Source: Escherichia phage vB_EcoS_L-h 1M
Sequence record: NC_073086.1
Strand: one strand, 5' to 3'
DNA: 45,204 nucleotides
Part shown: in pieces, positions 16,671 to 43,656 of the stretch
How positions within the stretch are numbered: the stretch's first letter is position 1
Layout: every line of letters starts with the position of its first letter
Notes under the pieces: model-generated
The model's database searches: none
Told to the model about the DNA's origin: nothing
What the model saw: the letters and a program-made list of their open reading frames with translations, nothing else
Program-made: the position numbers and the translations under genes

Positions 16671-17222
16671 ATGGCAGAAATCAAAGTTAAGGGCCGTCGC
16701 GCTAAACTGGACGGACGAGTAGCAGTTACCCCGCGCCGTAAACCAGGCGAGCAAACAGAACATACCAATCTCGGGCCGGAGATCGAATACGGCAAGCGCC
16801 GCAGAGGTGGCAAATGTGGACGCCCTACCGACTACCGTTCCGTGTATTGTGACCAACTTCGACGCTATTTCGCCGATGCCGTAGCCTGGCAAGTTAACTA
16901 CTCCGACAAGGGTGCTGCGCAAGTAATTCCCCGCAACATGATGCCTACCTTTGGTCGCTTCGCCGCAAAGATTGGCGTAGGCGTCGCATGCCTTTATCGC
17001 TGGGCGCGCGCACATGAGGAGTTCGCCGAGGCAATGGCTGACGCTATGGAGCTACAGAAAACCTTCCTGATGGAAGCTGGCGGCGTGACCATCGCGGCGG
17101 GCTTCGCTACCTTCCTGCTTAAAGCCAACCACGGCGTCCGGGACGATGTACCGCTGGATGACGACGAAGATGATAACGGCGACGTCGTTGTGGAACCTAC
17201 CGGCAAAGGTCAGGGTGATTAA
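16671..17222 (+). CDS. terminase small subunit (putative)
   Basis: ATG 16671 with AAAGGG RBS; HTH-like 'FGRFAAKIGVGVACLYRWARAHEEF'; acidic C-terminus; directly upstream of large terminase. Confidence 0.5.
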   Translation: MAEIKVKGRRAKLDGRVAVTPRRKPGEQTEHTNLGPEIEYGKRRRGGKCGRPTDYRSVYCDQLRRYFADAVAWQVNYSDKGAAQVIPRNMMPTFGRFAAKIGVGVACLYRWARAHEEFAEAMADAMELQKTFLMEAGGVTIAAGFATFLLKANHGVRDDVPLDDDEDDNGDVVVEPTGKGQGD

Positions 17223-23746: not shown

Positions 23747-24841
23747 ATGTCTTTAACAGTGTTCCAGCGTAAACTCGTTACCGCGGTTACGCAAATGATC
23801 CCCGACAACCTGAACGTTTTCAACGCCGCCGCCAATGGCGCTGTTGTTCTCGGTACTGGTGAAGTGCTGAAGGATGTTATTGAGAAAATGTCCGTAGGCT
23901 TGATCGCCAACCTCGTTACCGACCGTAACGCCTACGCCCCTGTCGGCACTCCGGCAACCGCGAAAGTGCTGGCGCGTATGCTGACCAACTCGGTTAACCT
24001 GTCCGCGAAAGTGGGTCCGGTGGCAATCACTAAGGCTATGATGGCTAAGATCGAAACCAACGTTAACAGCGTTGCGGCTGAGATTGCGGCACAGGCTACT
24101 CAAGCGATTATGCTGCACTACCTAAAAGCGGGTATCGGTGCGGGTAAAGCGGCGATCGAAAGCAACGCAGCAGCAAAATACACCCAACCGGCGCGCGTTG
24201 ATGGCGTTGGCGGTCGTACCTTCCCGACCCTGGCAGACTTCCCGCTGGCGGCTTCTAAGTTCGGCGATCAGGCGTCTTTGATTAAGTCCTGGTTTATGGA
24301 CGGCGTTACCTGGGCAAACTTCATTGCGTACCAGGCGCTCCCTTCCGCTGAACAGGTATTCGCAATTGGCGATCTCCAGGTAATGGGCGATGGCCTGGGC
24401 CGTCGCTTCATTATCTCCGATGCCGCTGCCGATGCTATGGGTGCTGGTAACATGCTGGGTCTGGTCCCTGGCGCGGTTGCAGTCACCACCAACGGCCTCG
24501 ATATGCTGGCGCAGGAGAAAGGCGGTAACGAGAACATCGAACGCTGGTGGCAGGGCGAGTTCGACTTCAACGTGGCTGTTAAAGGCTACCGTCTGAAGGC
24601 GTCCGCTCGTACCCCGATCGAAGGCGTCCGCTCGTTCAAGCTGGACGATATCACCACTTCCGCTAACTGGGAACTGGACCAGGGCCAGGTAGACAACGCA
24701 CCGGCAACCGTTCAGGATGTTGGCGGTGGTAGCGATACTAAAGGCCGTCGTAAGACCCAGGCCGCACAGGCAGTGCCTACCCGTCACATCAAGGAAACCG
24801 CTGGCGTACTGGTTACGCTGACGGCGACCACAGCGTCCTGA
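23747..24841 (+). CDS. major capsid protein
   Basis: 364 aa after scaffold; followed by strong rho-independent terminator. Confidence 0.75.
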   Translation: MSLTVFQRKLVTAVTQMIPDNLNVFNAAANGAVVLGTGEVLKDVIEKMSVGLIANLVTDRNAYAPVGTPATAKVLARMLTNSVNLSAKVGPVAITKAMMAKIETNVNSVAAEIAAQATQAIMLHYLKAGIGAGKAAIESNAAAKYTQPARVDGVGGRTFPTLADFPLAASKFGDQASLIKSWFMDGVTWANFIAYQALPSAEQVFAIGDLQVMGDGLGRRFIISDAAADAMGAGNMLGLVPGAVAVTTNGLDMLAQEKGGNENIERWWQGEFDFNVAVKGYRLKASARTPIEGVRSFKLDDITTSANWELDQGQVDNAPATVQDVGGGSDTKGRRKTQAAQAVPTRHIKETAGVLVTLTATTAS

Positions 24842-24860
24842 CTAGCGCACATCCCAAATG

Positions 24861-24886
24861 GGCGGGCTTATGCCCGCCTTTTTTTA
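24861..24886 (+). terminator. rho-independent terminator after major capsid gene
   Basis: stem GGCGGGC / GCCCGCC, loop TTAT, then T8. Confidence 0.7.
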
Positions 24887-24900
24887 TAGGAGCAAATAAG

Positions 24901-25401
24901 ATGTATGGCGACCCGCAAACCTTTGTTGTTTATGCCGCTGCGCGAGGCGTTGAAATTACGCAGAGCGACGCAACGCGACACCTTACCATTGTTAATGACT
25001 TCCTTAACGGCATCGACTGGATCGGCGAACAAGCGGACCCGACCGGAATTGACGCATGGCCCCGCGTCAACTACCCGTCAGACGGTAAGCCGGTGCAAAA
25101 CACGCTTACTGAAGATTTGGCAGTAGTTCCCGCTGGGCAAATCGTAGACTTTGCATCAATCCCCGTTGCCGTTGAGCAAGCTGTTTACCGGCTGGCGATG
25201 TTGGTGGCGGATGAGATCGATATTTCTCCGGTCGGCGATGGTAAAGAGACTATTCGCGAAACGGTCGGCCCGATCACGATGGAATATGACCCGGCGTCGA
25301 TTGGTAGCGGGGTGTCATTCCCATGGTGGGATGGCTTGTTAGGCCACTGGGTTGATTCAGGCGGCAACGCAGCGGGTAATTTTGACGTATACAGGGGGTA
25401 A
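24901..25401 (+). CDS. head-tail connector/adaptor protein (putative)
   Basis: position after capsid; GGAG RBS. Confidence 0.4.
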   Translation: MYGDPQTFVVYAAARGVEITQSDATRHLTIVNDFLNGIDWIGEQADPTGIDAWPRVNYPSDGKPVQNTLTEDLAVVPAGQIVDFASIPVAVEQAVYRLAMLVADEIDISPVGDGKETIRETVGPITMEYDPASIGSGVSFPWWDGLLGHWVDSGGNAAGNFDVYRG

Positions 25402-25505
25402 TATGAATCCTGCATTACTCGCAGCTATTATCGCTGCAAATACTAAACGCCGACCGGAACAAGAACCGGAGCCAGAACCAGTACCACCGGCACAGGAGGA
25501 AGAAG

Positions 25506-25859
25506 ATGGCAGGCTTTAATTACGCAGGATTAAAGCGGAAAGTGAATCCGCTGATTAAAAAATTCGGCATGACCGTTACGGTTACGCGTCCGGGATCGGT
25601 TGACCGTGTAGACGGCGACGAAGTGGTGATCCCGCCAACGTCGTTTGACGTCATCGGTCTTCGCGAGGAGTACAAGCCGAGCGAGATCGACGGAACGCGT
25701 ATCGTTGCCGGTGATGTGAAGTTTTTATGTCGGGCGGTTGAGCAATTGCGGGNGGGCGACCTGGTTAACCTGAACGGCACTGACTACCGGGTCGTCAACC
25801 CAAACCCACTGCAACCGGCTGGCACTACCATGCTGTTTCAACTACAGCTAAGGGGCTAA
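25506..25859 (+). CDS. head closure / head-tail joining protein (putative)
   Basis: 117 aa, position in neck module. Confidence 0.4.
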   Translation: MAGFNYAGLKRKVNPLIKKFGMTVTVTRPGSVDRVDGDEVVIPPTSFDVIGLREEYKPSEIDGTRIVAGDVKFLCRAVEQLRXGDLVNLNGTDYRVVNPNPLQPAGTTMLFQLQLRG

Positions 25860-25860
25860 C

Positions 25861-26454
25861 ATGGCTGAAGTCTACTCATTCGCCGCCACTATTGCTACGT
25901 GGGTGGATAAGACGAAGGAGAACAACGATAAGGCGGTGCGGGCGTACGGGATGCAAATACTCGGACGCCTTATTGAGATCTCCCCGGTGGGCGACCCTCG
26001 CCGGTGGAAGATTAACAAGGATTATGCAATGGCCCGCCAGCACGCGAACAAGGTGAACGCCGCACAGCGCCGCAAGAATGGCGGCAAACTGAAGCGCGGG
26101 CAGAAGAAGCACGCCAGTGTGCTCATCTCATTCAAGACTAAAAACGGCAACGTCACGTTCCGACAGCGTGGCTGGGCTGCGAAGAATTACACCGGCGGAC
26201 GCTTCCGGGGAAACTGGCAGGTTACGTTCGACAGCCCGGCTGTCGGCGCTATTGACCGCGTGGACAAGGCCGGAACGGCAACATTAGCCGCGGGGCGTGA
26301 AGTGCTGGCGCATTACGATTCCGGGGAATACGGGTCGATCTGGTTTACTAACAATGTGCCGTATGCGCAGCGACTTGAGTATGGCTGGAGTAAACAAGCG
26401 CCTGCGGGGATTGTTCGCGTCGTAGCGGCAGAAATTAATTCGAAGGTGAAATAA
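25861..26454 (+). CDS. neck/tail completion protein (HK97 gp10-like, putative)
   Basis: 197 aa; 'NNVPYAQRLEYGW' resembles HK97 gp10-family motif. Confidence 0.4.
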   Translation: MAEVYSFAATIATWVDKTKENNDKAVRAYGMQILGRLIEISPVGDPRRWKINKDYAMARQHANKVNAAQRRKNGGKLKRGQKKHASVLISFKTKNGNVTFRQRGWAAKNYTGGRFRGNWQVTFDSPAVGAIDRVDKAGTATLAAGREVLAHYDSGEYGSIWFTNNVPYAQRLEYGWSKQAPAGIVRVVAAEINSKVK

Positions 26455-26876
26455 TGAGCAATACTCTAATCCGCAAGGCGCTTAACAGCGTTGTAGAAGA
26501 ATTATCGGTAAGCCTGAGCACTAACCAGCGCCCGATAAAGGTTAACTGGGAGAACGTGAGCGGCGACCNCNCCAACGGCAGNGGTGTCTACCTGGAACCG
26601 TACCTGCTTCCGGCCCCGACCCAGTTTGTGGGCTTCCAGCAGAAGGGCCGGGTCTATGCTGGCGTTTATCAGGTTGCCGTCGTGTTCCCAGCGGGAACTG
26701 GAACACAGTACGCTAGCGAACTGGCGGACGCTATCGCGACGTCGGATAAGTGGCTGGAGGTAAAGATTTCCGGCGCTGCATTCCAGCTTCAGGACGCGCC
26801 CTATACCAGTTCAGTGGTTGAGGATGTTGATCGTGCCCGCATCGTGGTCACAGTCCCCTACACCTGTTGCGCCTGA
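26454..26876 (+). CDS. major tail tube protein (putative; could instead be tail terminator)
   Basis: 140 aa directly upstream of terminator, chaperone and tape measure. Confidence 0.4.
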   Translation: MSNTLIRKALNSVVEELSVSLSTNQRPIKVNWENVSGDXXNGXGVYLEPYLLPAPTQFVGFQQKGRVYAGVYQVAVVFPAGTGTQYASELADAIATSDKWLEVKISGAAFQLQDAPYTSSVVEDVDRARIVVTVPYTCCA

Positions 26877-26967
26877 TTTGGCGCAATTCTATGCGTGCGG
26901 TATCATTAATCCGTATATCTAAACAGGAGCGTTCATTATGGGTCGCTTAAGTAGCGAGGGGTCTTAT

Positions 26968-26992
26968 GGGGCCAGCACGGCCCCTTTTTTAT
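26968..26992 (+). terminator. rho-independent terminator between tail tube candidate and chaperone
   Basis: stem GGGGCC / GGCCCC, loop AGCAC, then T6-7. Confidence 0.6.
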
Positions 26993-27006
26993 TGGAGAAT
27001 ACCACA

Positions 27007-27683
27007 ATGGCTAAAGCACCACTCTTCACACTTGACCCTAAGCCAACCTTTAAGCTGCCGATTGAGATCCCGCGCCCTGGTGAGAACGAACCCGGCAANA
27101 TGACTTTTACCGTCCGCCACCGCCCGATCGACGAGTTTTCGCAGACCATGCAGGACACTGAACGAAAGCTATCGGAATATGACGACAATGACCCGGACGG
27201 CTTTAACGTTATGGTCGAGGCCATCATGCACGTCGCAGAAGGCTGGAATCTGCCGGACGAATTTAACGCGGAGAACGTCCGCCGCCTGGTGGTCAACTAT
27301 CCACGCGCGTTCGGTGTGTTCCACACGTCGTACTATCTCGAACTGATGGGGTTGNGNGAAAAAAACNAATTGAGGNGGCGCGNCGCTTTTNTGGCCCNCC
27401 NCCNCCCTCCGAAGATTGACCCGCAAGTTTATGGGGTGCGGCCCCCGAAGATGTTTGTCCGCCTGTTGCACTATGGCCCGACAACGCGAAGATACTCGCA
27501 GTCTTCACAGATTGCTCCACGCAATGGCGCACCGGATTTGGTGGCGCATACGGCATCGACTACGGCGTGCTGGAGTGGTTATTTAAGATGCACGGTATCG
27601 AAAACGAGCAGCGCGCGTTTAAAGATATCAAGCCGATGGAACGAATCGCGCTTGATGAGATGACGCAGCAGAACCCAGCATAG
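27007..27683 (+). CDS. tail assembly chaperone with C-terminal domain in -1 frame (G/GT-like)
   Basis: N-domain in frame of ATG 27007; slippery heptamer A_AAA_AAC 27360-27366; protein-like C-domain in -1 frame 27420-27683; N-run 27355-27411 between. Confidence 0.5.
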
Positions 27684-27687
27684 TGAA

Positions 27688-28000
27688 GCGGGACAGGCGT
27701 GGCGTCCCGTTTTGTCCCGCCTCTGCAAAACTATGTACCTACTCAATTCCACTGCATTAACTCAAAACGGGACAGGCGGGACGTCCCCCTTTGTCCCGCC
27801 CCTCAAAAGTGAATGGCTATGCGGTTTTTCTGCATTAAACAAACGGGACAGAAAGCGGGACAGAATGAGGCGGGACAAAGCGGGACAGCACCCCTGTCCC
27901 AGTCAGTGCTGCCGCTGGTTTTTGCCGATCGGGACAGGCGGGACAAAGCCCAGTCTTTCANACNANACGGGGGNCAACGGCCCCCCTCGTCTGAGACTGA
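27688..28000 (+). repeat. composite element copy B: expanded GCGGGACA array plus the same stem-loop
   Basis: at least 10 direct and 5 inverted GGGAC units; shares exact 31-mer with copy A; hairpin has N calls. Confidence 0.7.
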
Positions 28001-28067
28001 ATAAGGTTTGTTTTAAAATCGCTGATACAATATCCATCGGCAACTGCATAAAAAAGGGGACTGCATT

Positions 28068-28409
28068 ATGGCAGATCAAGCGGCAGGCATCATGATGAAG
28101 GCTGATGTTGCACAAATCAGAACGGCAAATACTGTGCTGGACTCCTTCGCACAGAAATCCGAGAACACAGAAAACAAGATGAAGAAATTAAACGACACCC
28201 TCGGCAAATCCAAAAAGGTGACGAGTGACGCCGCGGGCGGAATGGAGAAGCTCGCGACTGAATCGCAGCGCGCAGCCGATGGCATGACAAAACAGGAGCG
28301 ACTTGCCAACAGGTTAGGCATGTCGACCAAAAACCTGGGCTTTGCCTCGCGTAACGCCGCATTCCAGTTACAGGATATCGCAGTTACGCTTGAGATGGGG
28401 ATGCCTTGA
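28068..28409 (+). pseudogene. tape measure N-terminal duplicate copy ending in in-frame TGA
   Basis: 113 codons, ~90% identical to 28794 onward; TGA at 28407-28409 where copy 2 has GTG; same frame as downstream ORF. Confidence 0.4.
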
Positions 28410-29519
28410 CACCGCGTCATGCTTCAGCAGTTACCGCAGCTAACTGGGGCGTTCGGCGGACTGGGTAACACGCTGCGTTTTGTTGCGGGCTTCCTCGGCC
28501 CAGTAGGGGTCGGCCTTGCCGCCGTAACGGCAACGTTAGGCGTGGGCGTGGCAATTACGTCCCNCNNGGAGAACNANANCCCCCCGCTTAACAAGACGCT
28601 GGCACTTTCCGGTAACATTTCCGGCCTGACGGCAAACCAGATCCTGGTGCTATCTGAGAACGCCGAGCGCATGGGCGGGTCGTTCCGCAAGACGCGTGAC
28701 ACAATCCAGGCGCTGGCGGCGGCGGGTGTGAAAGCGGGTGGTGACTTCGGCGCACTGGCGAAAGTGGTGAATGACTTTGCGAAGGTGTCCAGCATGGCAG
28801 ATCAGGCAGCGGGCATCACGCTCAAGGCGGACGTCGCGCAAATTAAAACGGCTAATACTGTGCTGGACACATTCGCGCAGAAATCCGAGAACACAGAACA
28901 GAAAGTAAAGAAATTAAACGACACACTCGGCAAGTCGAAAAAGGTTACTGGCGACGCCGCGGGCGGAATGGAAAAGTTAGCGACTGAATCGCAGCGCGCC
29001 GCCGACGGCATGACGAAACAGGAGCGACTAGCCAGCCGATTAGGCATGTCGACCAAAAACCTGGGATTTGCTTCACGGAACGCGGCATTCCAGTTACAGG
29101 ATATTGCGGTAACGCTTGAGATGGGTATGCCGGTGCACCGCGTCATGCTTCAGCAGTTACCACAGCTAACCGGCGCATTCGGCGGATTAGGTAACACGCT
29201 GCGTTATGTTGCGGGCTTCCTCGGCCCAGTAGGGATCGGACTTGCGGCAGTAACGGCGACATTAGGCGTGGGCGTGGCAATCACGTCACGGGCAGAGAAC
29301 CAGGTAGCCGCGCTTAATAAGACGCTGGCGCTGTCCGGTAATATTTCAGGCCTCACAGCTAACCAGATCCTTGTGCTGTCCGAGAACGCTGAGCGCATGG
29401 GCGGGTCATTTCGCAAGACGCGTGACACAATCCAGGCGCTGGCGGCGGCGGGTGTGAAAGCGGGTGGTGACTTCGGCGCATTGGCTAAGGTAGTTAATGA
29501 CTTTGCGAAGGTGTCCAGC
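28068..29519 (+). repeat. 726-bp in-frame tandem duplication at 5' end of tape measure gene
   Basis: 28068-28793 vs 28794-29519, both begin ATGGCAGATCA; ~90% identical, mostly synonymous. Confidence 0.75.
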
Positions 29520-31436
29520 CAGCCGATCGAGGATGTGGTGGCGGCGGTGGCGAAGCTGTCAACCGACCCCGTTGGCGGACTGCGTGCGCTGGCGGATAAG
29601 TATCACGTCGTAAACGAAGCGCAGATCCAGCAGGTACAGTCGCTCGTTGATGCGGGTCGTGAGACAGACGCAGTTGCGTTGGCTAACAAAACAGCCGCTG
29701 CGTCGTTCACCAGTATGACCAATGAGATCAAGGCGAACATGGGTACGCTTGAGCGATCTATGAACGTCGTCACATCGGCAGCCAAATCAATGTGGGATGC
29801 CATCCTGGATGTGGGCCGCGCGCAGTCCTCCAATGAGTCCGAGATGAAAGCGCGCGAATCACTACAGCGCATGACCACGGCTTACTATGCCGAGATGAAA
29901 GCGGTAAACGCTGCCGGTGGGGTAATGACTGAAGCGCAGAAAGCACGTATTAACATGCTTTACAGCGAACTGGTCGCCCAGGAAAAAGTGGTGGCGTCGC
30001 TCACCCTGCGTAACCGTGCTGAGCGAGACAACGCCCGCGCCGCAGACGAATCCGCAAAGGCGAACGAGGAGGCCAACCGCACTGCCCGTGACCGCGCCGC
30101 GTTCGAGAAGGAATACGCCACCAACGCTAAGAAGCGCGCCGACGAGATCGCCCGCCTCAATTTGCTGAATAAGCGCGGCGTTATTGATGAGAAAGAACTA
30201 GCCGAGGCGGTGAAGCAGGTAAACGAGCGGTACAAAGACCCAGCCCCGAAAAAGGCCGCGGCTGTTCGCGTGGATGCCGGTATGAAAATGCTGGAAGTCG
30301 CACGGAGCGAACTGGCCCAGCTTCGAGAATCCGGCAAGCAGATCGAAGCCAACGCGTCTACGCAGACCCGCACGCAACGCGCTCAAGCGGCCTTAAACAA
30401 GCTGATCGCCGACAATGAGCAGTTAATCGCTGCGAGCAAAGAAAGAGCGCTAACGGCAGCAGAAAAGCAGCAATTAGTCGAGTTCGGGCGCGTGAAGGAA
30501 GTCCGCGAGCAGATCGTCGAAGAAGCCAAATTGCTGGATGCGAAAGAGCAGCAGGTTAAGGCGCACGCGCAGATCGATGCCTTCGTTAAGAACCAGAACG
30601 CCGAACTAAAAGCCACCGCCGCGGGGTATGCGCTTTCCACTCGCGAAGCGGCAAACCTGCGCGAAGAATTGCAGCTAATTGACCGCCTGAAGCGGGTTGG
30701 CGCTAACGATACCGATATTGACAAGGCGGTGTCTAAGCTGCGAGAAGTGCAGGAAGCACAGACCGGCGCTAACGCCTCGTTATGGGATGGATTCAGTCGC
30801 GGGCTTAAGGATAGCGTGGATGAAATGGGTAACGGATATACGCAGATGGCGTCGCTCACGAAATTTACATTCAGCGCTATGCAGGACACGATGAACGAGT
30901 TTTTCGAGACTGGTAAGCTGAACGCAAAGGATATGGTTAAGTCCATCCTGAGCGAATTAATCAAGCTGGCTACCTCGCAGGCGTTCAAGTCCATCGTTAG
31001 CGCTTTCGGTGGTGACGGCGGCAAAAACGGATTGTTCGGCGCTATCTTCTCTGGCCTCACTAAGAATGCGGACGGCGGAGCGTACACAGGCGGCAATCTC
31101 GCGGCCTATTCGGGGAAAGTGGTAAGCCAGCCTACCTTTTTCAGTTATGGCGTCCAGGCGTTCGCTAAGGGCGCTGGGTTGATGGGTGAGGCTGGACCCG
31201 AGGCCATCATGCCACTGAAGCGCGGGCCGGACGGGAAACTGGGCGTTGCCGCGTCTGGCGCAGGCGGTGGTATGGTCGTGACGACTAACGTTTACACGGG
31301 GACCGGTAAGACGGACACCAGTGTTAGCGGGCCAGACCCACGTACCGCGCAGGCGTTCGGCAAGCAAATCACCGAGGCGGTGAAGTCCGAGATCGTGAAA
31401 GCGACTAAACCAGGTGGTGTACTTTACAAACGATGA
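28419..31436 (+). CDS. tail tape measure protein
   Basis: 1005 aa, Ala-rich and coiled-coil-like; between chaperone and tail-tip genes; may start at 28794 or 28068. Confidence 0.8.
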   Translation: MLQQLPQLTGAFGGLGNTLRFVAGFLGPVGVGLAAVTATLGVGVAITSXXENXXPPLNKTLALSGNISGLTANQILVLSENAERMGGSFRKTRDTIQALAAAGVKAGGDFGALAKVVNDFAKVSSMADQAAGITLKADVAQIKTANTVLDTFAQKSENTEQKVKKLNDTLGKSKKVTGDAAGGMEKLATESQRAADGMTKQERLASRLGMSTKNLGFASRNAAFQLQDIAVTLEMGMPVHRVMLQQLPQLTGAFGGLGNTLRYVAGFLGPVGIGLAAVTATLGVGVAITSRAENQVAALNKTLALSGNISGLTANQILVLSENAERMGGSFRKTRDTIQALAAAGVKAGGDFGALAKVVNDFAKVSSQPIEDVVAAVAKLSTDPVGGLRALADKYHVVNEAQIQQVQSLVDAGRETDAVALANKTAAASFTSMTNEIKANMGTLERSMNVVTSAAKSMWDAILDVGRAQSSNESEMKARESLQRMTTAYYAEMKAVNAAGGVMTEAQKARINMLYSELVAQEKVVASLTLRNRAERDNARAADESAKANEEANRTARDRAAFEKEYATNAKKRADEIARLNLLNKRGVIDEKELAEAVKQVNERYKDPAPKKAAAVRVDAGMKMLEVARSELAQLRESGKQIEANASTQTRTQRAQAALNKLIADNEQLIAASKERALTAAEKQQLVEFGRVKEVREQIVEEAKLLDAKEQQVKAHAQIDAFVKNQNAELKATAAGYALSTREAANLREELQLIDRLKRVGANDTDIDKAVSKLREVQEAQTGANASLWDGFSRGLKDSVDEMGNGYTQMASLTKFTFSAMQDTMNEFFETGKLNAKDMVKSILSELIKLATSQAFKSIVSAFGGDGGKNGLFGAIFSGLTKNADGGAYTGGNLAAYSGKVVSQPTFFSYGVQAFAKGAGLMGEAGPEAIMPLKRGPDGKLGVAASGAGGGMVVTTNVYTGTGKTDTSVSGPDPRTAQAFGKQITEAVKSEIVKATKPGGVLYKR

Positions 31437-31473
31437 GGCGCGATCGGCGCGGGCCATCACTATTTTCACTACT
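31437..31473 (+). repeat. ~37-bp direct repeat, copy 1 (copy 2 at 32161-32199)
   Basis: GGCGCGATCGGCGCGGG...CACTATTTTCACTACT directly after tape measure stop; second copy inside L-like gene. Confidence 0.5.
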
Positions 31474-32073
31474 ATGTCACAAGGTACAATCACACTAACG
31501 AAAGGAAGTAAGACCGTCACGGGCGCGGGAACGGCGTTCTTGAGCGGGGTCGGGAAGGTACGCGTATTCGCCCGCATCGAAGGCAACGACTACACCGGAA
31601 AAATTGCGGCATTCAACTCTAACACCGTCATCACCCTGGCGGATAACTGGGCCGGTCCAACGAAATCCGGTGCGGTGTATGAGCTAATCGAAGCACACGA
31701 CCCGCGATCAAACGAATGGCCCTATTACTGGCACATGCAATTGCAAGGAGGCGGCGACGTGCAGTTAGCTTTCCGGTCGGAGGAATTGCAATTCGGTAAT
31801 GGCTACGGTCAGAACATCGCGGACGGCCCGAACGCCGAAACGAAACAGTTCCCCGTGCAATTCGTCGGGCTGACTACTGACAAATGGTGCGACCCTAAGC
31901 TGGTTTACAACTTCCTTCGCGGGCACTTTGTAAAACCGTTCATCGTCACCGCGCCGGATGGCGAGACAGGTTTATTCGTGGTCGAGCGTTCGAGCTTGTC
32001 GTACACTGACAACGGGCACTACACGGCAACGGTATCCGCCACCCTTAAAACAGCTATTGGATTCGTAAGATGA
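31474..32073 (+). CDS. minor tail protein, lambda M-like C-terminal half with N-terminal extension
   Basis: 'FGNGYGQNIADGPNAETKQFPV' parallels lambda gpM 'FGDGYSQRAPAGLNANLKTYSV'; ATG 31474. Confidence 0.5.
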   Translation: MSQGTITLTKGSKTVTGAGTAFLSGVGKVRVFARIEGNDYTGKIAAFNSNTVITLADNWAGPTKSGAVYELIEAHDPRSNEWPYYWHMQLQGGGDVQLAFRSEELQFGNGYGQNIADGPNAETKQFPVQFVGLTTDKWCDPKLVYNFLRGHFVKPFIVTAPDGETGLFVVERSSLSYTDNGHYTATVSATLKTAIGFVR

Positions 32074-32858
32074 ATAAACTCTATCGTGAAGCAACGCGCT
32101 TTGACCCATCGGGCCGCGTTCGCCTGATTCACATTGACGCGCAGGACGTGGAACCCGGCGACGGCGCGATCGGCGCGGGGCACCACTATTTTCACTACTG
32201 CTTTATTCCGCACACTGCCGAGGATATTGCTGCCGCTGGGGGTGACGAAGATAAGCTAAAACCTAAATCAATCTTCTTCGGCGGGCAGGAGTTCGAATTT
32301 TGGCCCTTCGATTTGTCCGGCCTCAACTTCTCCACATCAACGGCAGCAGAACCGCGGCTGACCATTGTCGATATTGGCGGAATTATCACCCGGCTGTCGC
32401 TGAACCACGACCAGCTACTGGGGGCGAAGGTTGAGATCATTGATACGTTCGCGAAGTTCCTGGATAACGGGACAGACCCAGACCCGACGCAGAAACGAGT
32501 TCAGGAGTATTACATCGACTCGCAGGTCGGGCGCAATCCGGGCAAGCAAATCACCTTCGCACTATCCTCACCTGCGGATATGGAAGGGCAGGTCGTTCCA
32601 CGTCGCCAAATCATGAACATGTGCGAATGGGCGCTCAACGGGAAGTACGCCAGCGGGGACGGTTGCACTTGGAACCTTGCGCAGCCAGGCATCAAGTATT
32701 ACGACGAACGCGGAAACGAAGTCATCGCAATGAATATGGACCGATGCGGCGGCTGTTTGTCTGATTGTTATCTTCGTTTCGGGCAAGGGCTTGCGGACCC
32801 TAAAGCTGCGGTGCTGGACTTCGGTGGTTTTCCTGGGTCCAAATTAATCAAGGGGTAG
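32070..32858 (+). CDS. minor tail protein L-like
   Basis: 262 aa; C-terminal Cys cluster 'RCGGCLSDC'; position between M and K homologues. Confidence 0.7.
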   Translation: MNKLYREATRFDPSGRVRLIHIDAQDVEPGDGAIGAGHHYFHYCFIPHTAEDIAAAGGDEDKLKPKSIFFGGQEFEFWPFDLSGLNFSTSTAAEPRLTIVDIGGIITRLSLNHDQLLGAKVEIIDTFAKFLDNGTDPDPTQKRVQEYYIDSQVGRNPGKQITFALSSPADMEGQVVPRRQIMNMCEWALNGKYASGDGCTWNLAQPGIKYYDERGNEVIAMNMDRCGGCLSDCYLRFGQGLADPKAAVLDFGGFPGSKLIKG

Positions 32859-32860
32859 TC

Positions 32861-33601
32861 ATGTTAACGCAAAAGGTTAAAAGCGATATCGCCGCGCACG
32901 TTGCGGCATGTCTGCCTGAAGAAGCCTGTGGGCTGGTCGTCATGGTAGGCCGCAAACAAGTATTCGTCCCATGTCTGAACGTATTCGAAGACCCGACCGG
33001 CGTGCGCTCACGCAAAGACGCGTTCACGATTAGTGATATGGCCTGGATGGATGCGGAGGATATGGGCGACGTCGTGCGCGTAGTCCACTCTCATCCGGGC
33101 CAGCGCGAGCTTACCCCATCACTGGGCGACGTTAATGGATGCAACGGCAGCGGCGTAGTCTGGACCATCACTAACGAATATGGCGACTTTATCGAGATCG
33201 ACCCTGAAGACCCGCCGCTGGTAGGGCGTCGATTTGTTCTCGGAATTACGGATTGTTACGGCCTCGTCATGGACTGGCACAAAAAGCAGGGAGTAAACCT
33301 GCCAGACTTCCGCGTGCCATATAACTGGTGGGAGACAGGCGAAAATCTGTATATGGATAATTGGTACGGCGCGGGCTTCAGGGAGTGTGAGGAAAATACG
33401 CCGGGGGCGATGGTCATCATGCAGATTAGCGCGCCAGTGCCTAACCATGCCGGAATCTACCTTCCGGGCAACCAACTACTACACCACATCTACGGCAGCC
33501 TGTCGAGCGTGGTCCCCTTCCGGGCAGGATTTTTCCGGGACAATGTGGTTAAATGGGTACGTCATAAAGACCTACCGGGGAATATCACAGAATGGCAATG
33601 A
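32861..33601 (+). CDS. tail assembly protein K-like (JAB/MPN + NlpC/P60)
   Basis: JAMM motif 'HSHPGQRELTPSLGD'; Cys/His pair 'ITDCYG...NHAG'. Confidence 0.7.
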   Translation: MLTQKVKSDIAAHVAACLPEEACGLVVMVGRKQVFVPCLNVFEDPTGVRSRKDAFTISDMAWMDAEDMGDVVRVVHSHPGQRELTPSLGDVNGCNGSGVVWTITNEYGDFIEIDPEDPPLVGRRFVLGITDCYGLVMDWHKKQGVNLPDFRVPYNWWETGENLYMDNWYGAGFRECEENTPGAMVIMQISAPVPNHAGIYLPGNQLLHHIYGSLSSVVPFRAGFFRDNVVKWVRHKDLPGNITEWQ

Positions 33602-34209
33602 CAACGTTTAAATTGTACGGCGTCTTGGGGCGTCGATTCGGTAAAGTGCATAAGCTGGACTGCTTCACTCCGGGCGAGGGTATCACCGGCCTGTGTGTGA
33701 AGTTACCCGGCTTACAGGACTTTCTAATGTCGGCCCACCTGGACAATATGATGTTCAAAGTGCGCAAGGGCAACCACACAATGACCGGTTATGATGAGCT
33801 TGGAGAGTTCCACGGCAACCGCGTAGTTACCATCGCTCCGGTTATGACTGGCGCAAAAAGAGGATTGGGCCAATTGCTGGCGGGTGTCGCGATCGTAGTG
33901 GCGTCGTTCTATACGGGCGGACTTGCTACTGCCGCTTTCGGGGCTTCGGCGGCAACCGCTGCCGCTATCGGTACGGCTACATTTTCGTTCGGCATGTCAC
34001 TTGCGCTGGGCGGTGCTATGCAATTGCTGTCCCCACAGCCGAAAGGATTGCAGACACGGCAGGACGTGGATAACAAAGCGTCGTATGCGTTCGGCGGGCC
34101 GGTAAACACGACCGCGCAAGGTACGGCACTTGGTGTATTATGGGGTGAGCGTGAGATCGGCGGCGCTATTATTTCAGCCGGAATCGTAACCGAGGATTTG
34201 AACGAATGA
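33592..34209 (+). CDS. tail assembly protein I-like
   Basis: 205 aa; Gly/Ala-rich hydrophobic C-terminal half; position before J. Confidence 0.6.
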   Translation: MAMTTFKLYGVLGRRFGKVHKLDCFTPGEGITGLCVKLPGLQDFLMSAHLDNMMFKVRKGNHTMTGYDELGEFHGNRVVTIAPVMTGAKRGLGQLLAGVAIVVASFYTGGLATAAFGASAATAAAIGTATFSFGMSLALGGAMQLLSPQPKGLQTRQDVDNKASYAFGGPVNTTAQGTALGVLWGEREIGGAIISAGIVTEDLNE

Positions 34210-37200
34210 CGATTGTCTATGACGTCACAGGCCATAAAGGCGGCGGTGGCAAACAGCACACCCCACAGGAGACACCCGATAGCCTGCATTCGCTGGCTAA
34301 AATCCGCATCTTGCTCGCGCTGGGAGAAGGTGAGTTCGAAGGTATTCCAGACCCTAACGAATTACGGCGGCGCGTATATCTGGACGGAACACCGATCCAG
34401 AATGCAGACCTGTCTGAAAACTTCCCTGGGGCGCGTGTGGAGTTCCGCCCCGGAACACAGCACCAGGATGTGATCCACGGATTTTCAGCGGTGGAAAGTG
34501 AGCAATCTGTCGGTGTAAAACTGGAAAACGGTACGCCGTGGGTGCGCCAGATTAACGATACCAGTCTGGACGCCGTGCGCATTCGTATCGGTAATCCGGC
34601 CCTGTACACTAACGAAGATAATGGCGACCTGGTGGGTGGGCGCATCGACTATAAGTTCGTTGTGTATACGGATAACGCCGACCCGCGTGAGTTTACCTTC
34701 GCTGCCGTTGGTAAAACAATGTCTCTATACGAGCGCGATCACCGCATCGAGCTACCGCCGAACGTTAACACCGGCTGGCGCGTGGAGGTGCACCGCATAA
34801 CGGCGAACTCCACATCGGCAAAAGTGGATAACGATATCCAGGTGCATTCTATTACTGAGATTATCGACGCCCGTCTTCGCTACCCGCTAACCGCGCTGTT
34901 GTTCGTGGAGTTCGACGCTAAAGCGTTCCAGAACATCCCGCGCGTGTCCATCAAGTGCAAAGGCCGCAAAGTTCTAATACCGAACAACTATGACCCGATT
35001 AATCATACCTATTCGGGGGACTGGGACGGCACGTTTAAACGCGCATGGACGGATAACCCTGCGTGGCACTGGTACGATATTTGTATTACGGAACGCTTCG
35101 GCCTCGGTCGCCGGATCAAACCGCAAATGCTGAACCGGTACGCGCTCTACCAGATTGCGCAGCGCTGCGATCAACTGGTCAGCGACGGCAACGGTGGTCG
35201 AGAAATCCGCTTTAAGAATGATATGTACATTCAGTCACAGACGGATGCCTGGACCGTGCTTAAGGATTTGGCTGCCATCTTCGCCGGAATGACCTGGTGG
35301 GGTAACCAGATGTTGAATATCGTCAGTGACCAACCGGTAGCCGCGGTGTCACACACTATCACCAACGCATCTGTTATTGATGGGCGATTCGACTACGCAT
35401 CTGGAAGCCAGAAAACGCGGTATTCCACTTTCGCGGTAGCCTACGGCAACCCGAAAAACCACTATGATGATGCCATCGCAACGGGCCAACGTGTCGAACT
35501 GGTACGCCGCCATAAGATTAACCGTCTTGATATCACGGCGATCGGCTGTACGCGCGAGTCAGAAGCGCAACGCCGGGGGCACTGGGCGCTAATATCCAAC
35601 CAGCTTGACCAGCAGGTCAGCTTCAAGGTTGGCATGGAAGGTCTATTCTTTATTCCGGGTAGCGTAGTCGCGATCGCAGATACTAATATTTCTGGCGGAT
35701 TCGAGACTCGCGGCGGTCGCCTGTTGTCAGACCCTGGCACGCGTACCGTGCTTAACACAGACAGCGAAATCACATTCCGCCCTGGTGATAAGTTCCTGGT
35801 ACGCACCGATAGCGGAAATGTGGAGACTCGCGAGATCGCCAGCGTCAACGGCAACAAGGTCACTCTAAAAACCGCACTGGATGCCGACCCGATTCCAGAC
35901 CAACCGTTTTGCGTTGATGGCGATGATATCCAGTTGCAGAAATTCCGCATCACCGATCTGGAATATGACGACTCTACCAGCACTTTCTCGGTGCGCGGGA
36001 TTGAATACAACGATAGCAAGTATGATGCCGTTGATAATGGCGCTCGCCTTGATCCTGGTATCTTCACGCAAGTGCCTGATGGTGTAATGAAGGGGCCGGA
36101 ATCCGTGACCATCACCACGTCGCAGATTTCATCGCAAGGACAGCTAATCACCAACGTGGATATTGTTTTCCCGCCGGTGAAAGATGCCGTGGTGTATGAA
36201 ATCCAGTGGAGGCGTACTAGCCTGCAGAATATGGCGATCCAGTGGGGTAACGACTGGGTGAATATCCCACGCACGGCGTCGAATGGGGCACACATCCCTA
36301 ACGTGTTCTCCGGTAACTATCAGGCACGCGTCCGCGCAATTGGCATGGGCGAGATATCATCCCCGTGGGTGTCTTCCGCGATCACGCCGGTGGAAGGTCG
36401 CCTCGGCGGGCTTAACGCACCAATCATCACCAGCGCGATTTCGGGTCTGCATCAAATTCTATGGAAGTGGAACCACAACAACGCCGCTACGGATATCTCA
36501 TACACCGAGCTTGAAGTGCGCAAGACGGGTGAGGCAGAATGGAAATTCTTAACAAACGTCCCATACCCTGGCGCGGAGTATGCGCAAACGTCGCTGGAGT
36601 TCGGAATTTACCAGCAGTTGCGCGCCCGTGTAGCGGATAAAATCGGCAACCTGTCGGACTGGTCGGCCCCGTTTGAAGGGCAGGTGAGCGACAAAGTTGA
36701 CGAGTACATGAAGGGGCTTGATGACGAGTTCTTGACTTCCGAGGATGGTAAACACTTCCAGGAAGCAATCGACACCATTCCTCAAGGCATTTATGAGTCT
36801 ATGCTAACGGACGCACAGCAATTGATTAACGCCCGCTCCGAGTATCAAGGGATTTATGCGGAAATCAAGGTGGCGTATAACGTTGCCACGGACGCCCACA
36901 AGGCAGTAGCGCAACTGGAAACGTTGATCGGCACACGACTTGATGATGCGGAGGCGTCAATCCACACGTTGCAGACAGCGCAAAGCACGCACGAACAAGC
37001 GTTCGCCCAGTACCAACAAACTGTCGCCGCTAAGTTTGGGGAACAGGAAGCCGCCATCCAGCAGGTACAAACGGCAACGGCAGACGTAGCTGGCGCACTG
37101 GCGGAGTACAAGACCCAGGTCGCGGCACAGTTCGGTCAGCAGTCTGCCGCTATCGAGCAGAAGATGACGTCTTCGTTTAACCATGCTGGTGGCAGCGCCA

Positions 37201-37652
37201 CATATAGCCTTAAGGCTGGCGTGACGTATAACGGGGCTTACTACGATGCCGGTATGCAGCTTTCAGTTGTTGCGGAAGGTGGCGCGGTTAAATCCCGCAT
37301 CGCGTTCAAGGCGGACCAGTTCTACATCATGCACCCATCTAATGGGTCGCTTTCGTCCGCGTTTATCGTTGACGGCGGTCAGGTGTACATTGACACCGCA
37401 CGCATCAAGAACGCGTCTATCAACTTCGCGCAGATCACGGACACGCTGCAGTCGAATAACTGGAATCCAGGCAACAGTGGCTGGCGTATCGCGAAGGATG
37501 GCGGGGCGGAGTTCAACAACGTAACGGTACGAGGCAACTTGTTCGCTACTACTGGTAACTTCGGATTCTCTGGAGGGTCGGTACAGATCGACGCCACCGG
37601 CATTAACGTGCCATTGCCTGGCGGGGGTAGGGTGAAAGTGGGGACGTGGTAA
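34206..37652 (+). CDS. tail tip / host specificity protein J-like
   Basis: 1148 aa; N-term 'KGGGGKQHTPQETPDSL' and 'YSGDWDGTFKRAWTDNPAWHWYD...RCDQLVSDGNGG' parallel lambda J. Confidence 0.85.
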   Translation: MTIVYDVTGHKGGGGKQHTPQETPDSLHSLAKIRILLALGEGEFEGIPDPNELRRRVYLDGTPIQNADLSENFPGARVEFRPGTQHQDVIHGFSAVESEQSVGVKLENGTPWVRQINDTSLDAVRIRIGNPALYTNEDNGDLVGGRIDYKFVVYTDNADPREFTFAAVGKTMSLYERDHRIELPPNVNTGWRVEVHRITANSTSAKVDNDIQVHSITEIIDARLRYPLTALLFVEFDAKAFQNIPRVSIKCKGRKVLIPNNYDPINHTYSGDWDGTFKRAWTDNPAWHWYDICITERFGLGRRIKPQMLNRYALYQIAQRCDQLVSDGNGGREIRFKNDMYIQSQTDAWTVLKDLAAIFAGMTWWGNQMLNIVSDQPVAAVSHTITNASVIDGRFDYASGSQKTRYSTFAVAYGNPKNHYDDAIATGQRVELVRRHKINRLDITAIGCTRESEAQRRGHWALISNQLDQQVSFKVGMEGLFFIPGSVVAIADTNISGGFETRGGRLLSDPGTRTVLNTDSEITFRPGDKFLVRTDSGNVETREIASVNGNKVTLKTALDADPIPDQPFCVDGDDIQLQKFRITDLEYDDSTSTFSVRGIEYNDSKYDAVDNGARLDPGIFTQVPDGVMKGPESVTITTSQISSQGQLITNVDIVFPPVKDAVVYEIQWRRTSLQNMAIQWGNDWVNIPRTASNGAHIPNVFSGNYQARVRAIGMGEISSPWVSSAITPVEGRLGGLNAPIITSAISGLHQILWKWNHNNAATDISYTELEVRKTGEAEWKFLTNVPYPGAEYAQTSLEFGIYQQLRARVADKIGNLSDWSAPFEGQVSDKVDEYMKGLDDEFLTSEDGKHFQEAIDTIPQGIYESMLTDAQQLINARSEYQGIYAEIKVAYNVATDAHKAVAQLETLIGTRLDDAEASIHTLQTAQSTHEQAFAQYQQTVAAKFGEQEAAIQQVQTATADVAGALAEYKTQVAAQFGQQSAAIEQKMTSSFNHAGGSATYSLKAGVTYNGAYYDAGMQLSVVAEGGAVKSRIAFKADQFYIMHPSNGSLSSAFIVDGGQVYIDTARIKNASINFAQITDTLQSNNWNPGNSGWRIAKDGGAEFNNVTVRGNLFATTGNFGFSGGSVQIDATGINVPLPGGGRVKVGTW

Positions 37653-37678
37653 CCGCCATCCCCGTTACGTTGTACTGA
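37653..37678. repeat. 26-bp exact direct repeat, copy 1 (copy 2 at 38379-38404)
   Basis: CCGCCATCCCCGTTACGTTGTACTGA between J stop and RBP-like stop; identical copy inside RBP-like gene. Confidence 0.7.
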
Positions 37679-38653
37679 TTAATAGATGTTAGGAATTACG
37701 AGTAACGGGGTGGGTACTGCAATGTTTTTACCCGGCATTTGGAATTGCTGCCGTGAATAGTTGCCGATTACCCGGTTTTTGGCGATGCGCACATTACCGC
37801 CTGCCATTCGAATCCCGTTCATTCGAACGTGATTGTAGCCGCCGTTGTTCTCAATGAGCGCGCCGGTATACGAAAGCTGGACCAGGCTATTGCCTATGTA
37901 CTGATCGCCGCCGCCGATATAGATAAGGCGGTCATAAACAAATGGCTTATTCACTGTTGAGAACGTGACCTGACCCTGGTTGTTTGTCATGGTGATGCCG
38001 TTTCCGGGGGTGGGTGGCGTATTGTTGAATATAACCAGGTCCATTTCAACGGCAGCGCCTACGTCGTCAATCCCACCATAGGACGCATTACGGACGATAA
38101 TACTTCCGCCATCGAAGCCGACCGACACGTTTCCGTCGTCCCAGCGCGCGAATGGGACACCGCCTACAGGTAACGGCATACTTCCGTTCACCCACACGCG
38201 CTGCGCATATTGGCAGGTCATTAGCCTGGATACATTTGATATGGCGGTAAAGTCCGTCGAGTTCGCCACCAGTAACCCTGCGTTGCGCGAACCCACCGGC
38301 AACACTTCCATGATCACCCCGCCCCATGTTGGAAGCCCGCTATATGCGCCATATGCGTCTTCACCTCGCAAGGTGATTCCGCCATCCCCGTTACGTTGTA
38401 CTGAGGTGACGTAGAAAGGGTCGGGCAAGACCAGTGTCTGGTCGAATACTTCTATAACTTCAACGGGGCTTGTGAGCGCGACGACCAGATCTGACCCTGG
38501 CGTTAGCTGAGTGTTAATAGTAAGCGTCTTATCAGACTGGCAGCGCTGATAGAATGAGGTACAGAATGACGGAGCGCGAAGTCCGGCTGTTATCTCCATC
38601 ACCGGCCTTCCGTCGTTGTAGTCTATAAGTATTCCAGCGCCCATGATTACCAC
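37679..38653 (-). CDS. putative receptor-binding / tail-tip protein
   Basis: 324 aa, G/N/T/S-rich; co-oriented downstream of Cor-like lipoprotein gene, antisense to J and fiber. Confidence 0.35.
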   Translation of the reverse strand: MVIMGAGILIDYNDGRPVMEITAGLRAPSFCTSFYQRCQSDKTLTINTQLTPGSDLVVALTSPVEVIEVFDQTLVLPDPFYVTSVQRNGDGGITLRGEDAYGAYSGLPTWGGVIMEVLPVGSRNAGLLVANSTDFTAISNVSRLMTCQYAQRVWVNGSMPLPVGGVPFARWDDGNVSVGFDGGSIIVRNASYGGIDDVGAAVEMDLVIFNNTPPTPGNGITMTNNQGQVTFSTVNKPFVYDRLIYIGGGDQYIGNSLVQLSYTGALIENNGGYNHVRMNGIRMAGGNVRIAKNRVIGNYSRQQFQMPGKNIAVPTPLLVIPNIY

Positions 38654-38868
38654 TCCCGAGATTTAACTGATACCGTACCAGAGAAGTTGCCGTCACTATC
38701 CGCGGACAGGCCGGTGAAGCGCATGTCGACCTCCCCGGCAGGGACTTTTTGCCCGTCAACGTAGCGCAACATGCAGCTTCCGTAAGCTACCGTAATGCAA
38801 TCGCCGTTGTTACGCTCTACCGCGCAGCCGGACAGAAGAACCGCACAAATCACAATTAATGTTTTCAT
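38647..38868 (-). CDS. Cor/Llp-like superinfection-exclusion lipoprotein (putative)
   Basis: 73 aa; signal peptide with lipobox 'AVLLSGC'; located beside tail fiber/RBP genes. Confidence 0.5.
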   Translation of the reverse strand: MKTLIVICAVLLSGCAVERNNGDCITVAYGSCMLRYVDGQKVPAGEVDMRFTGLSADSDGNFSGTVSVKSREW

Positions 38869-38948
38869 AGACAGACACCGGCGTTATTCGCGATGAGGCC
38901 AATGCCGCGAAGGCTGAAGCGCAAGCCGCCAGCACTGCCGCGCTTGGA
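38869..38948 (+). repeat. 80-bp direct repeat, copy 1 (copy 2 at 39595-39674, 1 mismatch)
   Basis: fills the whole intergenic gap between lipoprotein and fiber start codons; duplicates an internal fiber segment. Confidence 0.75.
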
Positions 38949-40589
38949 ATGGCAGCGGGTACACTATCCGTAACGAATAACAGCAAGGCGGTTGTCGGGG
39001 TAGGCACGACGTTTACCACGTTTACCGCTGGCGACTTCTTAACTCTGGTGGTGGGGCAAGTGCCTTACACTGTTGCTATCGCGTCCGTCGAAAGCGACAC
39101 CGCGATTACGCTTGTGCTTCCGTTCGACGGCCCCACGGCAACCGGCCTCGCGTGGGATGGCGTTAAGCGCGATACCATGTCGCTGGCAACGATGGGCGTA
39201 ACAGTACAGGCACAGAAAGCGTTGCGCTTGATGATCGCTGACGAAAACAACTGGCGTGCAATCTTCGGAGACGAAGAAGAAGTCACGGTAACGCTGCCGA
39301 ACGGGCAAGTTATGCAAGGTATGTCCTGGGGCTACCTGTCACAATTGATGAATCAGATCGACCCCGTTGAAATGCGCAACCTGCAACAACAAGCCGCGGC
39401 ATCTGAAGCAGCAGCGCAAGGATTTCGCAATGAGGCCGAAGGCTTCAAGACTGAGACGGCGGGGATCCGCGACGCCACCAACCAGATTAAGGCGGATACG
39501 CAGGCTATCCACGACGCCACCAATACCATCAAGACGCAGACGGCCCAGATTAAGACTGACACGCAGGCCATCAAGGGCCAGACGGACCAGATTAAGACAG
39601 ACACCGGCGTTATTCGCGATGAGGCCAATGCCGGGAAGGCTGAAGCGCAAGCCGCCAGCACTGCCGCGCTTGGATATCGGAACGAGGCCGAACAATTCAA
39701 GAATGAGATTGACCCGTCTAACTTTCTGGCAAAGGGTGGCAACCTGGCTGGGTTAACTGACTTGCCCGAGTCGCGGGATAACTTGGGTTTAGGAGCGTTG
39801 GCGACTAAAGATTCGGCGGCGCTAAACTCCACAGATACGACCGGTATTCTGCCCATAGATAAGCGCGGTTTAGGCGCTGGTACCATCCCTGGCGCACGGG
39901 AGACGATGCATATTTATGGTCATGACGCTACGTTCGGGACCATAAATAATATCCTCACATACTTCAACAATATTGCGGGTAACGGCCGACTCTTCTCGTT
40001 TCGAGATGGTGCCGTTGACGCCACGAACACCTACAAATTCGGCTCAGCAATACTGTTTCGCACAGCCGACACCTACGGACTGTTAAGTGTTGACCACAAC
40101 AGCGGAAACGTTAGAGCATCCGGTGGTACAGTTTCTGGTGGGATCGCGGCCACAGCATACATCAACAACCTGTGGGGTACGCGTAACACCACCGTAGACG
40201 GTAACGGGTTTATTAAAACCGCGTCGCCCATCGTCAAGATCTTCAGTGACGGTGCCGCGGAGACTAACGACGAGGCCGAAGGCGTTACGCTGACTCGCAT
40301 ATCTGCGGGGGTGTATGTTGTGGAGGGGTGTCTAGGCCTCAACTCAGACCCATCCTGGGGCGGGCCTGACGGCGGGATTGAGATTCCGACGGACGTGAAC
40401 AAGCAGCCTCGTTTATGGGTTGATTATAAAGTGCGCGCTGACGGCTCTGTGGAGGTACGCACATACCACCGAACACACCCACACGCTCCAGCATTCGCAA
40501 GAAATGAGATAGAAGGTGTGGCGGAAGGGGACCCGGTTGATATACCGCGTGGCACGTTCATATCTGTTCGGGTTAATATGCCTGAGTAA
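38949..40589 (+). CDS. side tail fiber protein
   Basis: 546 aa; fiber-like N-terminus; repeats 'FRNEAEGFKTETAGIRDATNQIKADTQAI...'. Confidence 0.7.
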   Translation: MAAGTLSVTNNSKAVVGVGTTFTTFTAGDFLTLVVGQVPYTVAIASVESDTAITLVLPFDGPTATGLAWDGVKRDTMSLATMGVTVQAQKALRLMIADENNWRAIFGDEEEVTVTLPNGQVMQGMSWGYLSQLMNQIDPVEMRNLQQQAAASEAAAQGFRNEAEGFKTETAGIRDATNQIKADTQAIHDATNTIKTQTAQIKTDTQAIKGQTDQIKTDTGVIRDEANAGKAEAQAASTAALGYRNEAEQFKNEIDPSNFLAKGGNLAGLTDLPESRDNLGLGALATKDSAALNSTDTTGILPIDKRGLGAGTIPGARETMHIYGHDATFGTINNILTYFNNIAGNGRLFSFRDGAVDATNTYKFGSAILFRTADTYGLLSVDHNSGNVRASGGTVSGGIAATAYINNLWGTRNTTVDGNGFIKTASPIVKIFSDGAAETNDEAEGVTLTRISAGVYVVEGCLGLNSDPSWGGPDGGIEIPTDVNKQPRLWVDYKVRADGSVEVRTYHRTHPHAPAFARNEIEGVAEGDPVDIPRGTFISVRVNMPE

Positions 40590-40621
40590 CTTCGCCGGTG
40601 AGCACGACCATAGGCTGGACG

Positions 40622-41197: not shown

Positions 41198-41238
41198 GTT
41201 GCATCCCTCATTGATGCGGGCCGAAGCCCGCGATTAAA

Positions 41239-41730: not shown

Positions 41731-41784
41731 AGTATTACCCTTTTTAGTGAGGGGGCTTTATTGCCCCCGACACGTTTAATATAG

Positions 41785-41806
41785 TGCAACCAACCTATTG
41801 GTTGCA
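41785..41806. promoter_or_regulatory. palindromic operator-like site TGCAACCAA-N3-ATTGGTTGCA
   Basis: inverted half-sites of the recurring motif; overlaps stop codon of 41795..42265. Confidence 0.45.
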
Positions 41807-43640: not shown

Positions 43641-43656
43641 CGTGTTGTCTCCGGGT

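Follow-up and report, generated by a model that had tools for sequence, protein, structure and literature searches.

The 726-nt head-to-tail repeat at the start of the tape measure gene in the window, by which we mean the whole 45,204-nt stretch of DNA that was analyzed, is with a probability of about 90% an artefact of composite text locked to the annotation of another record, and not a phage gene duplication. The repeat is no real biological feature. The composite make-up of the window, a slip of 726 nt, a missing tail tube gene, imposed start and stop codons, and junctions absent elsewhere are all observed directly; from this sequence footprint we infer that their cause was a computational process aware of the annotation of GenBank MT478993.1.

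The repeat itself is present as the preliminary description had it. Positions 28068-28793 (copy 1) and 28794-29519 (copy 2) align head to tail without gaps and with a period of exactly 726 nt, and both copies start with ATGGCAGATCA. Among the offsets scanned (100-3000), 726 alone yielded 37-mers with at least 33 matches, which places the repeat far beyond chance; a tandem repeat search with a maximum period of 500 missed it for that reason. The copies differ at 91 of 720 comparable bases (87.4% identity), with another 6 N in copy 1, and these differences are distributed 14/5/72 over the three codon positions, making 64 codon changes synonymous and 13 non-synonymous. The identity is thus slightly lower than the roughly 90% first estimated, while the accompanying remark that the differences are mostly synonymous is borne out by the 72 of 91 at third positions. 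Copy 1 does carry an in-frame TGA at 28407-28409 where copy 2 reads GTG; it is codon 114 of copy 1 and ends an ORF of 113 amino acids (28068-28409), and no single ORF runs across both copies. Copy 2 does open a tape measure gene, as had been proposed: the gene at 28794-31436 matches the Pfam families TMP_2 (148.6 bits, 2.6e-43) and Tape_meas_lam_C (52.7 bits, 4.6e-14), both above the gathering score, and these domains, together with a position after TAC and DUF1799 in MT478993.1 and its relatives, mark it as a lambda-like tape measure gene.

Each copy derives from a different phage. The best-matching record of the window in a similarity search was MT478993.1 (Escherichia phage vB_EcoS_011D5, Dhillonvirus), which is also 45204 nt long. 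Copy 2 is 100% identical to MT478993.1, and copy 1 is 87.4% identical to the tape measure start of that record as opposed to 98.6% identical (10 differences in 720 bases) to that of phage CEC_Kaz_2018 (MK728541.1). The closest relative of each copy is therefore a different phage and not the other copy, which is not the relationship of paralogues. Over the same 726 nt, MT478993.1 and CEC_Kaz_2018 are 88.6% identical to each other, and since this figure matches the 87.4% found between the copies, the synonymous bias reflects the divergence of orthologues rather than selection after a duplication. The text passes from one lineage to the other at the repeat junction, being relative-type up to 28793 and identical to MT478993.1 from 28794, so that CEC_Kaz-type tape measure sequence is followed directly by ATGGCAGATCAGGCAGCG at 28793/28794. 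Different lineages, matching divergence, and a switch at the junction are what characterizes a chimeric join of two lineages. Copies from two lineages that change over exactly at the junction could also have come from ordinary mis-assembly of a mixed stock, in which an assembler, working de novo or guided by a reference, would have stitched together the 5' ends of two Dhillonvirus strains.

The composite character of the window extends well beyond the repeat. Compared at identical coordinates, the window and MT478993.1 differ at 3173 positions (7% overall), and the window contains 78 N where MT478993.1 contains none. The INPHARED and NCBI (GCA_014070505.1) copies of MT478993.1 are mutually identical over 24794-35436, and both differ from the window. 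Positions 1-26943 align to MT478993.1 without a gap at 93.7% identity, positions 26941-28793 align to MT478993.1 27667-29519, and positions 28794-45204 are again in register at 99.3%. The window is a mosaic of blocks, in which stretches 100% identical to MT478993.1 alternate with stretches of about 90% identity; the divergent blocks are 96-99% identical to CEC_Kaz_2018, and about 44% of the window text, in blocks, belongs to a CEC_Kaz_2018-like Dhillonvirus lineage. Inside the aligned relative-type blocks, indels between MT478993.1 and CEC_Kaz_2018 amount to three events only, which does not by itself prove that the text was projected onto MT478993.1 coordinates, since a natural donor with equal gene lengths is possible.

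A block mosaic of two lineages also fits the mis-assembly of a mixed stock, as do the scattered N, which some consensus callers produce. The N are single bases that occur in clusters (at 6047-6138, 10490-10589, 27355-27404, 27961-27974, 28564-28579, and others), at positions where MT478993.1 and CEC_Kaz_2018 have the same base, which rules out strain polymorphism as their source; in-frame stops are masked by only two of them. Their placement away from sites that differ between the lineages argues against mis-assembly. The N clusters also count against the composite explanation, which does not account for them. A consensus of reads mapped on MT478993.1 that recorded only SNPs was considered and rejected: it would account for the equal length but leaves the imposed codons, the gaps filled from +726, and the N at non-polymorphic sites without explanation.

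Other repeats in the window were noted in passing. A 115-nt direct terminal repeat (1-115 and 45090-45204) is perfect in MT478993.1 and 91% identical in the window, and may be a terminal redundancy or the overlap of a circular assembly. Tandem repeats of 9/54 nt and 81 nt, at 4580-4772 and 7938-8105, lie within minus-strand ORFs. We found no literature mentioning phage 011D5.

The missing upstream gene accounts for the length of the repeat. MT478993.1, EC115 (ON210136.1), and CEC_Kaz_2018 have a common gene order of tail terminator, tube, chaperone, DUF1799, array, and tape measure (Table 1). In the window, this order breaks at the junction 26943/26944, where ATGGGT is joined to text located 726 nt downstream in MT478993.1. 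The tail tube protein has no tblastn match anywhere in the window, and at the coordinates 26938-27663 Pfam reports Phage_TAC_4 in the window (residues 24-143) versus Phage_tail_3 in MT478993.1. The stop TAA of the displaced chaperone gene is masked to NAA at 27367, and the coordinates taken up by copy 1 are occupied in MT478993.1 by the last part of the chaperone gene, DUF1799, and the intergenic array. The repeat has a period as long as the tail tube gene because the text slips by exactly the length of one gene and returns to the register of MT478993.1 at 28794. The join leaves the total length unaltered, the 726 nt of the tail tube gene being lost upstream, so the same length is predicted for both versions across 27900-29700 and the PCR suggested in the preliminary description would not discriminate between them by size.

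Table 1. Coordinates of tail module features in MT478993.1 and in the window, and of downstream inter-CDS gaps in the window filled from +726
Feature	Sequence	Coordinates	Strand	Remarks
Tail terminator	MT478993.1			Upstream of tail tube gene
Tail tube gene, Phage_tail_3, 241 aa	MT478993.1	26938-27663		726 nt; Pfam
Chaperone, Phage_TAC_4, 120 aa	MT478993.1	27733-28095		Pfam
DUF1799 frame, 76 aa	MT478993.1	28179-28409		Pfam 6.4e-20
Intergenic array, 384 nt	MT478993.1	28410-28793		
Tape measure gene, single	MT478993.1	28794-31436		
Tail tube gene remnant, ATGGGT only	Window	26938-26943	+	Comparison with EC115 and MT478993.1
Displaced CEC_Kaz_2018-like Phage_TAC_4 chaperone gene	Window	27007-27369	+	Inside the tail tube CDS coordinates of MT478993.1
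Displaced DUF1799 ('T') reading frame	Window	27453-27683	+	Corresponds to MT478993.1 28179-28409
Displaced intergenic region (CGGGACA array, GC hairpin, tape measure ribosome binding site)	Window	27684-28067	+	Corresponds to MT478993.1 28410-28793
Copy 1, first 726 nt of CEC_Kaz_2018-type tape measure gene	Window	28068-28793	+	
011D5 tape measure gene, 880 aa	Window	28794-31436	+	100% nt identity to MT478993.1; copy 2 is 28794-29519
Inter-CDS gap from +726	Window	31437-31473	+	35/37 to MT478993.1 32163-32199; 100% to CEC_Kaz_2018 17022-17058
Inter-CDS gap from +726	Window	37653-37678	+	26/26
Inter-CDS gap from +726	Window	38869-38948	+	80/80
Inter-CDS gap from +726	Window	40590-40621	+	26/32

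The missing gene also bears on whether the repeat could be a real heterologous tandem duplication, generated by recombination between co-infecting Dhillonviruses, with copy 1 a pseudogene and translation starting from 28794. In its favour, the copies meet cleanly and in frame, both look like natural coding sequence, a Shine-Dalgarno-like AAGGTG lies six bases upstream of the second ATG (28794), and TP901-1 tolerates engineered N-terminal duplications of its tape measure, which make the tail longer (PMC5099701). Lacking its tail tube gene, however, the genome could not form plaques, and we regard such a duplication as extremely unlikely.

Several features of the displaced region are of interest in their own right. 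A slippery heptamer, A AAA AAC, lies directly before the chaperone stop (window 27359-27369, MT478993.1 28085-28095), and a -1 frame there enters the DUF1799 ORF; judged by its sequence, the site looks like the classical G/GT tail chaperone frameshift. The motif CGGGACA occurs 20 times against 6.3 expected, with 16 of these occurrences in two intergenic arrays (window 11334-11435 and 27689-27945) that have in common an element of about 175 nt, 81-84% identical between them. Downstream of the array that precedes the tape measure gene are a GC hairpin and a promoter-like TTGTTT-17-TACAAT; the promoter-like site was picked out by eye and was not reported by the promoter scan. The array is also present in EC115 and CEC_Kaz_2018 and is thus a real Dhillonvirus feature, and the two arrays may be where a phage regulator binds at two promoters. 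Rfam and promoter/terminator scans of 26800-29600 reported nothing relevant.

The TGA that interrupts copy 1 in frame was written into the text as a stop codon and did not arise by evolution. Its position, 28407-28409 on the plus strand, is exactly that of the stop codon of the MT478993.1 CDS 28179..28409, and the underlying codon is GTT in CEC_Kaz_2018 and GTG in MT478993.1. The 40-mer around this TGA has no match among 50,697 phage records, whereas its counterpart in copy 2 is found in 60. Of the 10 differences between copy 1 and CEC_Kaz_2018, 7 fall on boundary codons of CDS annotated in MT478993.1: 28093-28095 (stop of 27733..28095), 28179-28181 (start of 28179..28409), and 28407-28409 (its stop). 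Upstream of copy 1, 27733-27735 reads ATG in the window and GCA in both phages, and 27661-27663 reads TGA in the window and TGG in both phages. Five boundary codons in all, ATG starts and TGA stops, have been imposed over GCA, CGC, GTT/GTA, GTT/GTG, and TGG.

The same fitting to MT478993.1 gene coordinates is visible within and between these boundaries. In the three displaced CDS frames, all of the in-frame stops of the displaced text have been changed (11/11), nine by substitution and two by N. Five in-frame stops have been removed from the displaced intergenic region 27684..28067, and the ATG within it at 27733-27735 and the TGA just past its end at 28093-28095 fit the CDS 27733..28095. As a result, the CDS coordinates of MT478993.1 delimit intact ORFs in the window in 65 of 65 cases, including three whose products have only about 7% amino acid identity to the MT478993.1 proteins. 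Six GTG or TTG starts of MT478993.1 are ATG in the window (at 11596, 14112, 21219, 22930 on the minus strand, 25861, and 28179), two of them being the sole change inside long identical blocks; three non-ATG starts after 41200 are the same as in MT478993.1.

These codons weigh against each of the alternatives. An assembler would not write ATG and TGA at the annotation coordinates of another record, and mis-assembly of a mixed stock gives no account of the removal of all 11 in-frame stops or of the conversion of six GTG/TTG starts to ATG. For a heterologous duplication, the difficulty is that the TGA and six other changes specific to copy 1 fall on MT478993.1 CDS boundaries. The preliminary description had also raised a lengthened tape measure and tail, which would follow if the TGA were read through to give a protein of 1122 amino acids and a tail about 36 nm longer. 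UGA-C is a leaky stop context in E. coli, and in copy 1 the stop is followed by C, with the frame kept through both copies. Readthrough faces the same contrary evidence as heterologous duplication, and with a TGA that was imposed rather than evolved we consider its probability almost negligible. Taken together, a real heterologous duplication and a tape measure lengthened by readthrough remain very unlikely.

The slip of 726 nt recurs downstream of the repeat. Between 27664 and 40621, seven inter-CDS gaps, 26-384 nt long, match MT478993.1 at +726 (57/69, 69/83, 338/384, 35/37, 26/26, 80/80, and 26/32), and match it at chance level when compared in register; two further gaps in this range, of 2 nt each, were too short to score. 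A 37-nt repeat at 31437 and 32163 with a spacing of 726, reported by the repeat search, is one such filled gap. From 41200 to its end, the window is MT478993.1. No biological process yields an unchanging offset that affects inter-CDS gaps alone, at places kilobases from one another, and mis-assembly gives no account of gaps filled from +726 with the genes kept in register. Equal length and register, start and stop codons at CDS coordinates, and a recurring slip are together the marks of text edited to stay locked to an annotation. Self-copying by a generator working on the reverse strand was also considered as a source of the displaced text and rejected for the main block, 26944-28067 being no copy of window 27670-28793.

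Independent sequences have a single tape measure start. We searched INPHARED (50,697 phage records) with 40-mers that needed a 28-nt word across the junction, a search in which the positive control worked, and the duplication junction was absent. Searched as a degenerate exact pattern, it had no match in IMG/VR, JGI metagenomes, or GTDB genomes either. The junction left by the loss of the tail tube gene (26943/26944) was absent from the two collections scanned for it, INPHARED (50,697 records) and IMG/VR, and we found no record of the 113-amino-acid product of copy 1. The exact 880-amino-acid tape measure protein, in contrast, is encoded on seven independent contigs (from NCBI, one ENA metagenome assembly, and two Logan assemblies). 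Those contigs that include upstream DNA have the tube gene, TAC, a stretch of about 0.7 kb with the DUF1799 frame, and then the tape measure gene, the DUF1799 frame being called as a gene in two of four loci. On these contigs, identity between the start of the tape measure gene and the 726 nt preceding it is 25-28%, which is the level of chance, and the tape measure start is single-copy in MT478993.1 and four other contigs. The absence of the junction from every collection searched, and a deposited genome with a single copy, are further evidence against a heterologous duplication; that deposited MT478993.1 has none of the features described here likewise argues against mis-assembly, which on the evidence as a whole we consider unlikely.

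EC115 has identical CDS coordinates (offset 16649). We examined this as a sign of a shared duplication and rejected it, the EC115 sequence being single-copy; the content of the window does not fit the coordinates that it has in common with EC115. Among the records encountered, GenBank PQ843332.1 (Escherichia phage P-GXEC-L2P5, 88,607 nt) is about twice the length of a Dhillonvirus genome, has two tape measure genes in its annotation, matches in five places, and may be two genomes joined in one record. Dhillonvirus-like records labelled Campylobacter phage A144, Acinetobacter phage NJ01, and Sodalis phage are 93-96% identical to E. coli phages, and their host labels look doubtful.

The composite, annotation-locked reading can be put together as follows. 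The window is a derivative of MT478993.1 with the same length and coordinates, in which about 44% of the text was replaced block by block with CEC_Kaz_2018-like text. At the tail tube gene, the replacement text slipped forward by one gene length (726 nt), placing the chaperone gene, DUF1799, array, and first 726 nt of the tape measure gene of the relative at 26944-28793. With the tape measure gene of MT478993.1 in its proper register at 28794, two orthologous 5' ends abut in frame. The text was then fitted to the gene coordinates of MT478993.1 by writing ATG and TGA at annotated starts and stops and by removing internal stops, and the in-frame TGA of copy 1 is one of the stops so written.

Two of the interpretations offered in the preliminary description thus find no support. 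A decaying duplicate is at odds with copies that come from two phages, a single-copy deposited genome, and a missing tail tube gene; a lengthened tape measure and tail is at odds with the imposed TGA, a junction found in no independent sequence, and, again, the missing tail tube gene. Its fallback, two haplotypes assembled in tandem, was right about the joining of two lineages (98.6% and 100% identity for the two copies), whereas the missing tube gene, the imposed TGA, and text that is not that of the deposited genome go beyond it. There is an extremely small chance that a real Dhillonvirus variant with a foreign tape measure 5' end in tandem lies behind the text and that its other oddities come from later processing. 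If true, such a variant would offer a natural experiment on how tail length changes, or on how a duplicated tape measure start becomes a pseudogene. On the composite reading, the repeat is without biological significance, and the tail module of the real phage is an ordinary lambda-like one that has a single tape measure gene. The window text is not that of the deposited MT478993.1 genome and will give rise to further false findings, and other observations made in it call for comparison with MT478993.1, above all those concerning 26944-28793, inter-CDS gaps up to 41199, start codons, and the vicinity of N clusters.

Compared with the tail module of Dhillonvirus (MT478993.1, EC115, CEC_Kaz_2018), the window has the same module from 28794 on, comprising the tape measure gene, Phage_min_tail, Phage_tail_L, JAB/NlpC, tail assembly I, and a J-like tip; upstream of 28794 it differs in having no tube gene and in the remainder being shifted by 726 nt. 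The repeat resembles the chimeric contigs that arise from mixed strains in that two lineages about 88% identical are joined, with the switch at the junction and the repeat gone in the reference genome. It differs from them in its imposed start and stop codons, removed stops, normalized ATG starts, and constant +726 slip in gaps, none of which assemblers produce.

In-frame duplications and deletions in tape measure genes change tail length proportionally, as described for lambda gpH and the TP901-1 TMP (PMC5099701, which cites Katsura & Hendrix 1984 and Pedersen et al. 2000). A natural duplication would be expected to keep one ORF open through both copies, to consist of paralogues, to recur in independent sequences, and to sit in a complete tail module; the window lacks every testable one of these features, and nothing indicates a virion with a longer tail. 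Like the duplications in lambda gpH and the TP901-1 TMP, the repeat in the window is in frame, runs head to tail, and involves the N-terminal part of a lambda-like tape measure (TMP_2, Tape_meas_lam_C); unlike them, it has a first copy that ends early at a stop and derives from another lineage, its junction occurs in no independent sequence, and the tail tube gene is missing.
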